A DNA stretch of 32,000 nt, taken from assembly GCA_023136205.1 (NCBI GenBank), contig JAGLRQ010000023.1, positions 1-32,000 on the forward strand, given 5' to 3'. Below, in pieces: positions 21,950 through 26,586 of the stretch. The stretch comes from Candidatus Auribacterota bacterium. Its GTDB lineage: Bacteria; Auribacterota; UBA6266. Positions within the stretch are counted from its first letter, which is position 1, and each line of letters opens with the position of its first letter. A model generated the notes under the pieces. That model saw only the letters and a list, made by a program, of their open reading frames with translations. It did not search any database and was not told the DNA's origin. A program made the position numbers and the translations under genes.

Positions 21950-22771
21950 TCATAGTTTGTCTATAAAATTCAGCGCTTCTCTTAGGACTTTTCCATCACA
22001 CAAACCATGACCCATCCCCGGAACGTCAATTAATTTGGCATTGAATTTCTTTTTGGTATAACCATTGTGGTATACATCCAGTATATCCCCATGCCGCCAA
22101 TCAGATTTTCCCGTAATTAATACGAATTTTACATTCCTTTTAGCCCTGTTAGAATGTGTTGGTTTAGGAATATCATATGCATATTCACCGTTAGTTGTTG
22201 AATATGTTTGCTTAACTTTTTTATAAAAGTTTGCCCCGCAAATAGGTATAGCACCTGAGAACAAATCGGAATGTAAAAAAGCCAGAGTAGAAGCAGTTCG
22301 ACCTCCTCCTGACAAACCGGAGATATAAATCCTATCCCTGTTTACCTTAAACATCTCCATCATTTTATAGACACCTACCACAGTCAAACTCATCCTATGG
22401 TCAATATCATGATTGTTGCCCACTCTTTGCGGAGCAATAAAAAGAAGTTGCTTTTCTTTTATGATATTTTTCCAACTCGCCGGAATTTTCATATTGTCAT
22501 CCGAATTAATAAATGCCAGAACTCCAAACGGTTTTGTACCATCATAGTTTTTAGGGACGTAAATATAAAATTTCTCGTTTTTCAAAGTATAAGAATAATT
22601 CAAATAAGAATGCTTCTTTTTAACCTTTGGCAATTTACCTTTAAAGGAATGAACTGTATCCATCTCTGAGAAAACCAATGAGGAAAGAATAAAATACACA
22701 CCTAAAAAACTTAGGCAGGGAGAAACAAGTTTATTCATTTTCTTAATACTTATCACTTTTATTGCATTCAT
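21950..22771 (-). CDS. Secreted alpha/beta-hydrolase (esterase / PHB-depolymerase-like family)
   Basis: The translation has a hydrophobic N-terminus, a nucleophile elbow (GLSGGG), and a C-terminal GMGHG His. An AAGGAG SD lies 8 nt upstream of the ATG. Confidence 0.7.
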   Translation of the reverse strand: MNAIKVISIKKMNKLVSPCLSFLGVYFILSSLVFSEMDTVHSFKGKLPKVKKKHSYLNYSYTLKNEKFYIYVPKNYDGTKPFGVLAFINSDDNMKIPASWKNIIKEKQLLFIAPQRVGNNHDIDHRMSLTVVGVYKMMEMFKVNRDRIYISGLSGGGRTASTLAFLHSDLFSGAIPICGANFYKKVKQTYSTTNGEYAYDIPKPTHSNRAKRNVKFVLITGKSDWRHGDILDVYHNGYTKKKFNAKLIDVPGMGHGLCDGKVLREALNFIDKL

Positions 22772-22826
22772 AACAGCATCTCCTTAGAAAGCTAACTCCG
22801 CACCTTATCGCTACACTATTTACTAC

Positions 22827-23360
22827 CTACCGGACTCTTTTTACAGTTAATATATCTGATGCAGTGTAATAAAATGGGAGATTCACAAATTTGCAACCTT
22901 CTTTAACGGCCTTATTGGGAAGAGCAAGAACAACTATTTGAAAGTCAACCCCTATACCCGCGCCTTCTTTTTCTCCGATATAAATTCCGCCCTCAAATCT
23001 ACCATCCTGAGATACCACAGGCTTTGATTGTGCCCACCACCATTTGACGTGAGAAAGCGGCTTTACAAAAGGGACTAACTCCACTTGCTTTTCCTGCAAG
23101 GCAAGGTTAACTCTCGAATTAGATTCAACCTGCGCCGCCGTAGTGCGAAAATCAACATTCCCGCTAATTTTCACTATATAACCGGATACCTCAGCGCCAT
23201 TTTCAGGTTCTGAAAGTTTAACATTTATTATCCAATTCTTAGCCATAGAAGCGAGTTTCTCAACTCGCTTAACCCGCAGAAAAGTATAAATAGATATAAT
23301 AGAGGCAAAAATACCCAGGATTAGCCCGGACGAGCTAACAATTTCCCATAATTTCATCAT
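22827..23360 (-). CDS. Hypothetical N-terminally membrane-anchored protein with a beta-rich extracytoplasmic domain
   Basis: One TM helix is present (SSGLILGIFASIISIYTFL). It is followed by an Ig-like-looking segment (KLSEPENGAEVSGYIVKISGNVDF). I recognise no family. Confidence 0.55.
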   Translation of the reverse strand: MMKLWEIVSSSGLILGIFASIISIYTFLRVKRVEKLASMAKNWIINVKLSEPENGAEVSGYIVKISGNVDFRTTAAQVESNSRVNLALQEKQVELVPFVKPLSHVKWWWAQSKPVVSQDGRFEGGIYIGEKEGAGIGVDFQIVVLALPNKAVKEGCKFVNLPFYYTASDILTVKRVR

Positions 23361-23544
23361 ATTTTCTATCCCTATCCCAATTTAAATAAAAACAGTCTGG
23401 TTCCAACACAATTAAACGGTAAATTGGTTAATTATTTAATCACCAATTAACCATTCACCGTTTTAAACGACCTGTCCACAATTATTGAACGAAGTTTGAG
23501 TTTATTTTGAAAACAATTTCCATCCTTGTCCCGTTTCGCGGGAT

Positions 23545-23874
23545 TTATGAATCAAGAGGATTAAAATTATCTCTTTTTTGCTTAATTCTTAGTTCAACAC
23601 TTCGATTTATCTTCTCTTTTGTTTCTTCACCTATATGCGTAAACTTCAACTTATTAATCATTTCTTTCAAATTATGTTCTAAAACCAGTTTTCCAAAAGC
23701 TTCATCAAGAAAAGAAGGAGTCACAAGTTTAACTCCCTCAAAGGACACTTCAATATCACCCTTATCCCAATTTTCAAGAACCATCTCCCTGATAGCTTGC
23801 CCACCCTTCTTTTGAGGGCTATCAATTCGCTGAGAACAGTATTCGCCAATTATTTCTTGTATTTTTATCAACAT
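23545..23874 (-). CDS. DUF4325-like (STAS-like) small protein
   Basis: The 109-aa translation contains GQAIREMVLENWDKGDIEVSFEGVKLVTPSFLDEAFGKL. This matches my recollection of the DUF4325/STAS-like signature (xxF.GV..vtsSFldE.fG.L). An AAGGA SD is present. The start is 10 nt after the upstream GHKL gene stop. Confidence 0.65.
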   Translation of the reverse strand: MLIKIQEIIGEYCSQRIDSPQKKGGQAIREMVLENWDKGDIEVSFEGVKLVTPSFLDEAFGKLVLEHNLKEMINKLKFTHIGEETKEKINRSVELRIKQKRDNFNPLDS

Positions 23875-23884
23875 AAAACAATCC

Positions 23885-25294: not shown

Positions 25295-25360
25295 CTTTTT
25301 TCCTTTTTGAGCTTTTACCTATTTTTTTATGTGATATTCTCAATCTCGATCCTCAATCTT

Positions 25361-26131
25361 TTATTTTTTATAGATTTTATTGTAATGATATTCAACGTAC
25401 TCTTTTTTAGGGGCAGGAGGTATAAAAGTAAATATTTTATTGTGCTCTTTGTCTACCACTGCTTCACAATCTTCAGGAAATATAGCAATCTCACCGTAGT
25501 CAAATAAAACATGATGGTTAGGGCAGAGTACCAACATATTTGCTTTTATATCTGGCCCATCATGACCCAATGGTTTAATATGGTGAGTTTCTGCATATCC
25601 CTTTCCTTCTATACTTAATCTAGTACCACATATTTGGCACTGGCAATTCCGGTCTTCTTTAACCTTATTAGATAACGCAGTATCGCGAACCGACCTTGTA
25701 ATTGTAGTAGTAGTCTTCTCAGGAGGATATTCTTCCATAAATTCTGGTTTAGGTTGTTCTATAATTTCAACATAATTAGATATTTTGTTATAAGCGTCAT
25801 TAATTTTTTTGTCTGAGATAGAAAAAGTTCCATCTCGATTCTCCGTCAATATTCCTTGTCTTTGAAGTAATCCCTGTTTAGCTGCATCAATATGATGTTT
25901 CCAAATCGAATAGTTTCCTCTATTCATAGGTTTACAATCTTCATTGTTTAAGATATTTAGTGATTTAATAACATATTTTTTAAACTTAGATGATTGGTAT
26001 CTTTCATTCTTGACTATCATGTAGATTAGAATCAGGTTTTCAAAGTAATTTGTGCGTATTTGAGAATTATGATTTCTTTGCGGATTGTTGATATATTTTT
26101 CTCCCTTTGGAGTTATCTGGTAGTTAATCAT
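25361..26131 (-). CDS. HNH endonuclease with an N-terminal Mrr_N-like winged-helix domain
   Basis: The C-terminal region reads CQCQICGTRL...AETHHIKPLGHDGPDIKANMLVLCPNHHVLFDYG, a McrA-type HNH with a Cys pair and HH..N..H. The N-terminal half (SIWKHHIDAAKQGLLQRQGILTENRDGTFSISDKK) resembles the Mrr_N wHTH. A good SD (AGGTGA) lies ~5 nt upstream of the ATG. Confidence 0.8.
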   Translation of the reverse strand: MINYQITPKGEKYINNPQRNHNSQIRTNYFENLILIYMIVKNERYQSSKFKKYVIKSLNILNNEDCKPMNRGNYSIWKHHIDAAKQGLLQRQGILTENRDGTFSISDKKINDAYNKISNYVEIIEQPKPEFMEEYPPEKTTTTITRSVRDTALSNKVKEDRNCQCQICGTRLSIEGKGYAETHHIKPLGHDGPDIKANMLVLCPNHHVLFDYGEIAIFPEDCEAVVDKEHNKIFTFIPPAPKKEYVEYHYNKIYKK

Positions 26132-26412
26132 TTATTCACCTGTTTATTCTTGTTAGCTGTCCTATCAGAAAAATCAAGAGGAATTAACCTGTCCTTTCTG
26201 GCCCTTGCAATCTTGATTATACCCTTCTCCTCAAGCTCCAGCAACCCCAAAGAAATTGATTCCAAATTTAGGAATTTCAAAAATGGTTTTTTCCTGTTCA
26301 CGAGTTTGGATTTTACAACAGGTATTGTAATGAAGTTGATTAAATGTGTTTGGATGCGAGATATGCGACTGAGGGTTCCGTTTAAGAAAATAGGGACAGT
26401 CCACCCGCTCAC
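26128..26412 (-). CDS. Doubtful small ORF, possibly a wHTH-like protein, whose stop overlaps the HNH start (ATGA)
   Basis: The C-terminal part (FLKFLNLESISLGLLELEEKGIIKIARARKDR) looks helix-turn-helix-like, and the stop/start overlap suggests coupling. Against this, the only full-length start is a GTG embedded in the 13-bp inverted repeat, and no SD is visible. Confidence 0.25.
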   Translation of the reverse strand: MSGWTVPIFLNGTLSRISRIQTHLINFITIPVVKSKLVNRKKPFLKFLNLESISLGLLELEEKGIIKIARARKDRLIPLDFSDRTANKNKQVNK

Positions 26413-26442
26413 TACGCTCGCTTGGGACAGTCCCTATTTTCT
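26385..26442. repeat. Perfect 13-bp inverted repeat (AGAAAATAGGGAC / GTCCCTATTTTCT) separated by 32 bp
   Basis: Read directly from the sequence. The arms are at 26385-26397 and 26430-26442, and each carries the near-palindrome GGGACAGTCC. The repeat lies 68 nt downstream of the tRNA-Pro 3' end, at the edge of the AT-rich island. Confidence 0.8.
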
Positions 26443-26509
26443 GTAACGAAGCAGGCAAGCGCATATAAGCAACTGGAATAGATATCTGGTGTAAATTTCA
26501 AACTAAAAA

Positions 26510-26586
26510 TGGTCGGGGCGACTGGACTCGAACCAGCGACCTCTTGAACCCCATTCAAGTGCGCTACCAGACTGCGCTACGCCCCG
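26510..26586 (-). tRNA. tRNA-Pro (anticodon GGG), CCA encoded
   Basis: The minus strand folds as CGGGGCG-TA-GCGC-AGTCTGGTA-GCGC-A-CTTGA-ATGGGGT-TCAAG-AGGTC-GCTGG-TTCGAGT-CCAGT-CGCCCCG-A-CCA. This is a 77-nt cloverleaf with a 7-bp acceptor stem, a TTCGAGT T-loop, and anticodon loop A-T-GGG-G-T. Confidence 0.93.

Follow-up and report, generated by a model that had tools for sequence, protein, structure and literature searches.

A tRNA-adjacent islet in an Auribacterota genome carries a restriction-type HNH nuclease gene and a STAS-GHKL kinase/STAS pair homologous to VapK and VapS

We describe an AT-rich segment beside the tRNA-Pro(GGG) gene in a 32,000-nucleotide stretch of DNA (contig JAGLRQ010000023.1, positions 1 to 32,000; hereafter the window) from an uncultured Candidatus Aureabacteria/Auribacterota bacterium. 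Auribacterota is, to our knowledge, a phylum known from metagenomes only. With moderate confidence, we read the region as a composite islet without an integrase, which arose by gene gain in a variable slot and carries both a Type IV-like HNH nuclease and a VapK/VapS-like pair, consisting of a STAS-GHKL kinase (K) and a STAS-only partner (S), that would act as a switch triggered by single-stranded DNA (ssDNA), with an output different from that of the known systems.

The segments and genes on which this reading turns are the following, with transmembrane abbreviated TM and amino acids aa.

Insert A: 23455-26496, unstranded, 3,042 bp, AT-rich; homology to the nearest relative (L010) ends at 23454 and restarts at 26497 (blastn)

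Insert B: 21111-22830, unstranded, 1,720 bp missing in L010, which has ~107 bp there instead

tRNA-Pro(GGG): 26510-26586, minus strand, found by ARAGORN and by Rfam (63.5 bits); its 3' end (26510) faces insert A

K, STAS-GHKL kinase/ATPase: 23885-24841, minus strand, with a weak HATPase_c match and an N-terminal STAS-like match

S, DUF4325 STAS-only protein of 109 aa: 23545-23874, minus strand, Pfam DUF4325 E 7e-14; starts 10 nucleotides (nt) after the K stop

HNH_2 nuclease of 256 aa: 25361-26131, minus strand, Pfam HNH_2 E 3.4e-9 and a weak Mrr_N match

TM orphan of 177 aa with an N-terminal TM helix: 22827-23360, minus strand, part of the backbone and outside inserts A and B

MerR-family gene: 26682-27026, minus strand, right backbone flank, followed by gpsA, plsY and der

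PAS-HisKA-HATPase-REC hybrid kinase: 19591-21099, minus strand, left backbone flank, followed by hom and thrC

The islet is best delimited by comparison with relatives, which were found by a GpsA scan with one genome per species. In the nearest of them, L010, GpsA is 92% identical and the backbone DNA is ~94% identical to the window; blastn aligns the window to it over 13060-21110 and 26656-28718 at 90-94%, over the tRNA gene, and over 22831-23454, the stretch of the TM orphan. The L010 copy of that orphan is 95% identical in protein and 92.6% in nucleotide sequence. Because the TM orphan aligns to L010, the window holds two separate extra segments, one on each side of it: in L010, MerR and tRNA-Pro lead almost straight to the sensor kinase, with both inserts missing and the TM gene kept. 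Insert A starts 13 bp past the tRNA 3' end, where L010 has ~103 bp of unrelated spacer, and it comprises the HNH gene, a 92-aa orphan (orf92), the STAS-GHKL gene and the DUF4325 gene. Both flanks are housekeeping, with MerR, gpsA, plsY, der, pgsA and gltX on the right and the hybrid kinase, hom and thrC, on to valS, on the left. The tRNA gene is the sole tRNA of the window, and it also stands next to gpsA in the relatives L010, L012, L013 and L014.

Base composition sets the same segment apart. The G+C content (GC) is 35.0% over 21950-26586 and 33.6% in insert A, against 41.4 +/- 1.5% in the backbone, where the lowest of 236 windows of 3042 bp, at 38.3%, is still above insert A. The four tRNA-proximal genes have a GC of 30-33% and a GC at third codon positions (GC3) of 15-27%, compared with a GC3 of 32-51% elsewhere. 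The dip is uneven, in that the TM orphan (41.0%) and the nitroreductase of insert B (42.3%) are backbone-like and the esterase beside the latter (34.5%) is not. The two genes of insert B are:

Secreted PHB-depolymerase-like alpha/beta-hydrolase esterase: 21950-22771, minus strand, 34.5% GC

Nitroreductase: 21122-21790, 42.3% GC; missing in the nearest relative L010

Farther out in the phylum, relatives retain the order gpsA-(MerR)-tRNA-Pro, and the slot is occupied in other ways. In the distant relative L013 a GGDEF gene fills it, followed by a longer version of the hybrid kinase, and in the distant relative L014 it is empty, the tRNA leading directly to hom. Since the slot is filled differently among relatives, its genes were gained stepwise, and the stretch from tRNA-Pro to the kinase/hom genes is a variable slot in Auribacterota. 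Insert A was probably acquired by recombination via the conserved flanks. No integrase or transposase has a Pfam match in the island or among the window open reading frames (ORFs) scanned, the Pfam scans having covered the window apart from the block 13052-19434, which is syntenic with biosynthetic genes of relatives. Probes of 16 and 25 nt from the tRNA 3' end, with up to 3 mismatches allowed, found no second copy of it, and no flanking direct repeat of at least 12 nt was found at the insert. A 20-nt repeat (21103/25215) was considered as a junction signature and set aside, as its second copy lies within the orf92 coding sequence.

These results bear on an earlier sequence-only reading of the window, which had proposed a single horizontally acquired island at the edge of tRNA-Pro(GGG), made of six minus-strand genes, low in GC, marked by a perfect 13-bp inverted repeat at the tRNA-proximal edge and devoid of an integrase. 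ARAGORN and Rfam agree on the tRNA, all six genes are there with the identities given to them, and the low GC (though uneven across genes), the inverted repeat and the lack of an integrase among the ORFs scanned all hold. Horizontal acquisition fits a segment that is accessory, missing in L010 and atypical in GC, but the island is not one 4.6-kb unit; it consists of two indels. The empty site predicted for relatives exists in L010 insofar as both inserts are missing there, although the nitroreductase, which had been taken for a fixed housekeeping flank, is missing as well and the TM orphan is kept. The direct repeat of the tRNA 3' end that was to be sought in the window did not turn up. The contrary possibility named in that reading, a conserved core region of uniform composition, was not seen either, as the content of the slot differs in L010, L013 and L014 and the GC is atypical.

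The K-S pair is best understood against CapKS and VapKSC, which were described in 2026 (Chambers et al., EMBO J; PMC13373217). CapK, an HTH-STAS-GHKL protein (HTH, helix-turn-helix), is activated by ssDNA and phosphorylates a serine of CapS, a repressor made of a STAS domain and a winged HTH (wHTH), whereupon the adjacent immune operon is de-repressed; ~20% of capKS loci lie just downstream of restriction-modification (R-M) systems (PMC13373217). VapK, a STAS-GHKL protein, phosphorylates VapS, a STAS domain with a C-terminal helix, which frees the PIN toxin VapC, and the operon protects against a phage (PMC13373217). Mutation of VapK F54, which, like CapK W68, is an aromatic residue that contacts ssDNA, abolishes protection (PMC13373217).

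With the VapK and VapS sequences taken from the supplementary AlphaFold file of PMC13373217, hhalign matches the K alignment to VapK over 237 columns (probability 98.5%, E 1.5e-15), and BLASTP aligns S to VapS at 25% identity over the full length (E 5e-5). These two matches establish the homology of the pair to the published kinase/STAS switch. The true start of K is likely the ATG at 24817, per a metagenome gene call, which gives 310 aa; residue numbers here follow the 318-aa GTG ORF. In that numbering, F53 aligns with VapK F54, a position that is F, Y or W in most homologues. The Bergerat motifs of K are intact and invariant, with an N box of E159/N163, a G1 motif of D193xGxG and a G2 motif of G236xG238, and the AlphaFold2 (AF2) model (predicted local distance difference test, pLDDT, 90.4) consists of a STAS fold followed by a Bergerat fold. 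K has 14 close homologues only; a profile search recovers 8,013 cluster representatives (E <= 1e-3), mostly of 280-340 aa, and K matches the phage family phrog_3364 at E 1e-40. A broader alignment of 50 K sequences is too divergent to yield search patterns. At the extreme C-terminus, kinases of the window clade carry a motif, E-P-I-P-x-E-Y-[RK]-L-I-[KR], that is missing in VapK and in the phage homologues and that may be a docking motif.

S shows a comparable pattern of conservation. A profile search finds 296 proteins, and the best 120 of these, together with window S and VapS, make up an alignment of 122 sequences, in which 105 proteins are short (95-109 aa) and 16 have 116 aa. The 16 long, VapS-like proteins carry the motif A-S-P-F, and the 105 short ones mostly x-S-S-F, with Ser immediately before the invariant Phe in 104 and Thr in the remaining one. 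Window S, like the S proteins of other pairs without a PIN gene (KS-only pairs), ends near VapS residue 100. We take S54 as the probable phospho-acceptor of window S.

These length classes also speak to the idea that the pair is a decayed VapKSC, a non-functional remnant that has lost VapC and is merely carried in the insert. True K-S-PIN operons do occur among the homologues (L103, L104, L133, a Deinococcus plasmid and Enterobacter), sampling of the 116-aa S proteins leads to K-S-PIN, likewise in two metagenome loci and the Deinococcus plasmid, and the window pair is complete except for PIN. We nevertheless consider decay highly unlikely. In a neighbour-joining (NJ) tree of 12 sequences the K-S-PIN kinases cluster and the KS-only kinases fall in other clades; short S proteins are 105 of the 122 aligned and keep Ser or Thr at the motif residue in all 105; catalytic motifs are intact in homologues at 25-55% identity; and in six KS-only contexts the several kb around the pair contain no PIN gene.

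In all contexts seen, K and S are neighbours, and their coupling extends to fusion. In human-gut metagenomes (L106 4244-5563, and L107), a type I R-M operon carries a 439-aa K-S fusion between its hsdR and hsdM genes, a K-S fusion also makes up the phage family phrog_5816, and K, S and the fusions form PHROG families without an assigned function. The pair is mobile, with neighbourhoods that include prophages, R-M genes and toxin-antitoxin genes. In Streptococcus prophages it follows the lysin gene at the prophage end, in a Burkholderia P2-like phage it adjoins the integrase, and in Gordonia phage Phishy it sits between the tail genes and the integrase; sampling of short S proteins adds pairs without PIN at the end of a B. 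pseudomallei prophage, by the holin/amidase genes in a Bacillus prophage and behind the lysin gene in Lactococcus prophages, and some KS-only pairs stand beside BrnTA. Among Auribacterota-related sequences, L001 has the pair in a pur operon, and in L004 it is flanked by lpxD and a metallo-beta-lactamase gene; in L005 a small Xre HTH gene precedes it, and in L007 an rve transposase gene does so. In a Francisella prophage covered by an older paper, genes for a 293-aa protein and a DUF4325 protein separate cI from the integrase, and another paper couples PIN genes to DUF4325. A viral contig collection scanned with the K alignment gave no match, a scan with the Streptococcus phage K returned the same prophage again and nothing further, and a metagenome scan yielded no more than 8 distant loci.

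As a separate observation, L001 holds at 9563-11543, between purL and purQ, the K-S pair together with a 132-aa gene and a 57-aa MazE/AbrB-like gene, and a GIY-YIG gene lies farther along the same pur operon.

The phage contexts invite the view that K-S is a phage-derived module for counter-defence or lysogeny control, serving as a decoy or a DNA-damage sensor, and present here as mobile-element debris. The PHROG families of K, S and the fusions, and the pairs in temperate phages of Streptococcus, Gordonia, Burkholderia, Bacillus and Lactococcus, speak for this view. We find it quite improbable, in that the phage pairs occupy moron positions (after lysin or next to integrase), copies exist without nearby phage genes (in this window and in L001), and the K-S fusion is found inside a host type I R-M operon. 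Moron placement is typical of genes that protect the lysogen, as is established for prophage architecture.

A small HTH or sigma-like gene precedes several KS-only pairs (L136 79-1748, on the Alicyclobacillus plasmid pAACI02; L005 215-412; L128 2058-2885), an arrangement reminiscent of the HTH fusion in CapK that may indicate a split architecture or point to a target. It bears on another proposal, that K-S is a CapKS-like transcriptional controller which, on DNA damage, regulates the HNH gene upstream or the TM gene downstream. CapK and CapS indeed control adjacent immune operons, and the position of K-S downstream of a restriction-type nuclease resembles that of the fifth or so of capKS loci just downstream of R-M systems; separate HTH genes just upstream in L005, L128 and the Alicyclobacillus plasmid point the same way. 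We regard this proposal as unlikely all the same, as S has no wHTH and K no HTH, the neighbours of KS-only pairs are not conserved, and each supposed target exists without K-S, the TM gene in L010 and the HNH gene as a homologue elsewhere.

Against PDB sequences, neither K nor S had a significant match. A Foldseek search started from the K model returned generic GHKL domains only, at low TM-score, SpoIIAB (1l0o, 1til) among them; the STAS part weakly matches the anti-sigma antagonist TM1442, and NCBIfam gives weak matches to SpoIIAA and slr1659. These likenesses, together with a sigma-like HTH gene upstream of one plasmid copy, would suit an ordinary partner switch of the RsbW/RsbV or SpoIIAB/SpoIIAA kind, serving a host sigma factor or stress response. 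We deem that very unlikely: the nearest relative does not have the pair, whose composition is foreign; the surroundings include neither a sigma factor gene nor a PP2C phosphatase gene; a STAS domain is fused to K itself, in the manner of VapK and CapK; and homologues are found at the ends of prophages and within an R-M operon. The GHKL-Shedu (VcSduA) family was also considered as a relative of K and rejected, its architecture being unrelated.

By analogy with the tested relatives, the pair could work as an ssDNA-sensing phosphorylation switch with a role in defence. In such a scheme, ssDNA would arise during infection or after restriction cleavage, for example by the neighbouring HNH nuclease, and would bind K in the groove that its STAS and GHKL domains form, F53 occupying the VapK F54 position. 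Activated K would then phosphorylate the conserved serine S54, where helix 2 of S begins, and phosphorylation would switch the binding partner of S. The output must differ from that of the known systems, because the pair comes without a VapC toxin and without a DNA-binding domain. Most likely, and here we speculate, S would gate K itself or a partner encoded elsewhere; a gating role of S is favoured because there is no linked toxin or DNA-binding domain and because natural K-S fusions exist. More tentatively, we propose that the effector-less K-S may be an immune module of two genes, autonomous and widespread, which would add a third architecture to CapKS and VapKSC; in it, phosphorylation of S would release no linked toxin but would free K or S for a conserved target, of the host or of the phage, encoded elsewhere.

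The second component of insert A is a restriction-type gene. The HNH protein keeps the motif CxxC...HH...N...CxNxH (C165, C168, H183/H184, N198, C203, N205 and H207), and it matches the NCBIfam model of a PT-DNA restriction endonuclease at E 4e-12, under the model cutoff. Its AF2 model, built with 25 homologues (pLDDT 80.5), has an N-terminal winged helix, a linker and an HNH domain; Foldseek against the PDB gives the modification-dependent TagI (E 9e-6), EcoKMcrA and VcaM4I as the best matches, and database relatives carry SRA or Mrr_N reader domains. The protein would, we infer, cut modified foreign DNA. A methyltransferase was found neither in the island nor among the scanned ORFs of the window. 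A homologue with 73% identity adjoins a Dam-like methylase and a DUF87 ATPase, with neither orf92 nor K-S beside it, and the HNH gene is therefore an independent, mobile, restriction-type gene.

Two small reading frames accompany the nuclease gene:

orf92, orphan of 92 aa: 25016-25294, minus strand, with the lowest GC3 in the window, 15%

orf94, doubtful ORF of 94 aa with a GTG start: 26128-26412, minus strand, overlapping the HNH start by 4 nt and called by metagenome gene callers

Neither has a relative by family: orf92 matches nothing in Pfam, PADLOC, NCBIfam or PHROGs, and orf94 has no family match and no name from PADLOC, NCBIfam or PHROGs. With tblastn, orf92 is found in contigs of the same population only; its candidacy as a conserved partner of HNH or K-S was rejected, as it does not stand beside homologues of either. 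The TM orphan likewise receives no name from PADLOC, NCBIfam or PHROGs.

Two hairpins lie in this region:

Long imperfect hairpin with 42-nt arms around the 13-bp repeat: 26361-26466, minus strand, folding free energy (dG) -50.4 kcal/mol, z -4.3

Imperfect hairpin with 22-nt arms: 23412-23466, minus strand, spanning the left junction of insert A, between the end of S and the start of the TM gene

The first lies inside insert A, 44-150 nt past the tRNA 3' end, where it overlaps the 5' portion of orf94, and has no Rfam match; a terminator, an operator and a recombination scar are its candidate roles. At its core is the perfect 13-bp inverted repeat (AGAAAATAGGGAC at 26385-26397, GTCCCTATTTTCT at 26430-26442), the only perfect one in the window at a loop of up to 60 nt, compared with 0.06 in shuffles. 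The second hairpin may, from its position, be the K-S terminator. A scan of the window for promoters and terminators gave counts not above those of shuffles, and an Rfam scan of the whole window found nothing besides the tRNA.

The motif CTGTCCCTATT has four copies in the window (8194-8204, 26389-26399, 26428-26438 and 28075-28085) against 0.59 expected with up to one mismatch, and it recurs as a tandem pair in an intergenic spacer of L010 (~4010-4040), perhaps as a repeated site specific to the lineage. Of seven independent metagenome contigs with the island, four (L093, L095, L096 and L097) end at the tRNA-proximal junction (~26343-26752), a 538-kb scaffold being among those that break there, and strain heterogeneity or the hairpin could underlie the breaks. 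Contig L094 follows the window at 99.8% as far as 24562, a position within the kinase gene, and its final 131 nt (8261-8391) are unaligned, either as a variant allele or through an assembly artefact where the contig ends.

Elsewhere in the window, an HMGL-like catalytic domain (52-327) and a dCache/PDC sensor domain (450-594) are joined in one 602-aa ORF (1502-3310, minus strand), an unusual fusion for an enzyme of the isopropylmalate/citramalate-synthase type.

The reading of the region as a composite islet with a nuclease and an ssDNA-triggered switch has to be weighed against several observations that count against it. PADLOC v2.0.0 names no system, giving partial matches only: the DrmA model to the N-terminus of K (E 8.5e-8), a match that in itself speaks for the reading, and mREase_IV (E 9e-7) and ZorE to the HNH domain. 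The VapS S48 column is Pro in the window clade (T-P-S-F), and the candidate acceptor S54 lies one position downstream. The reader of the HNH protein is a generic winged helix, and its family matches fall mainly over the catalytic domain. Insert B could be a deletion in L010 and not a gain here, because the composition of the nitroreductase is backbone-like. The island is fixed in the sampled population, with all 13 contigs that encode an identical TM-orphan protein carrying it and no empty-site allele found among them. Finally, because no effector is identifiable, the defence role is drawn from context alone.

The putative defence or conflict island of the sequence-only reading would thus be confined to insert A, with its HNH gene and K-S pair, as family scans found no defence signature in the esterase and nitroreductase of insert B and the TM orphan is backbone. 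That reading had also recognised no named system, which agrees with PADLOC as far as assignment goes, although K-S is homologous to VapK/VapS and CapK/CapS, if without their output parts.

CapKS and VapKSC have an evident output, a repressor domain or a PIN toxin; the window pair has neither, yet it is intact and mobile, and the KS-only form appears common in prophages of important pathogens and dairy bacteria. If K-S defends cells, an ssDNA-sensing kinase/STAS switch can use an unlinked or intrinsic effector, an output logic that would be new for these sensors. The locus is also an example of how defence genes may collect beside a tRNA gene free of an integrase.

Comparison with known systems places the components of the islet as follows:

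(i) SpoIIAB/SpoIIAA and RsbW/RsbV share with the window pair a GHKL serine kinase and a STAS partner with a serine at the start of helix 2. The window K differs by its fused N-terminal STAS domain, the locus has no linked sigma factor or PP2C phosphatase gene, and it is mobile and compositionally foreign.

(ii) Integrase-borne, tRNA-linked islands resemble the islet in that it abuts a tRNA 3' end, has an atypical composition and is missing in a close relative. Unlike them, it has no integrase and no repeat of the tRNA 3' end, and its junction lies 13 bp outside the tRNA.

(iii) Type IV HNH enzymes (TagI, EcoKMcrA, VcaM4I and ScoMcrA) share with the window nuclease the order of an N-terminal DNA reader, putative in the window protein, and a C-terminal HNH domain with the CxxC...HH...N...CxNxH motif, and they provide its best structural matches. 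The window reader is a plain winged helix and not an SRA, SBD or McrA N-terminal domain.

(iv) CapK/CapS is likewise a kinase paired with a STAS substrate, and the place of the window pair shortly after a restriction-type gene is matched in ~20% of capKS loci. The N-terminal HTH of CapK is missing in window K (no HTH match, and the model starts at the STAS domain) and the C-terminal wHTH of CapS is missing in window S, and no immune operon follows S, the next gene being the backbone TM gene. Because its K has no HTH and its S no wHTH, the window pair is not CapKS.

(v) VapKSC differs from the window pair in its output and in details of S. The window pair comes without VapC or another PIN gene (no PIN match among the ORFs scanned), the next gene being the backbone TM orphan; window S has no C-terminal helix of the kind that blocks VapC (VapS 94-116); the serine is shifted by one position, with TPSF here against ASPF in VapS; and K falls in a separate clade. 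In other respects VapKSC is close to it: K has the same STAS-GHKL build at nearly the same length (310-318 aa, against 302 aa in VapK) and the same catalytic Asn, F53 stands at the ssDNA-contact position of VapK F54, and a DUF4325 S follows directly after K.

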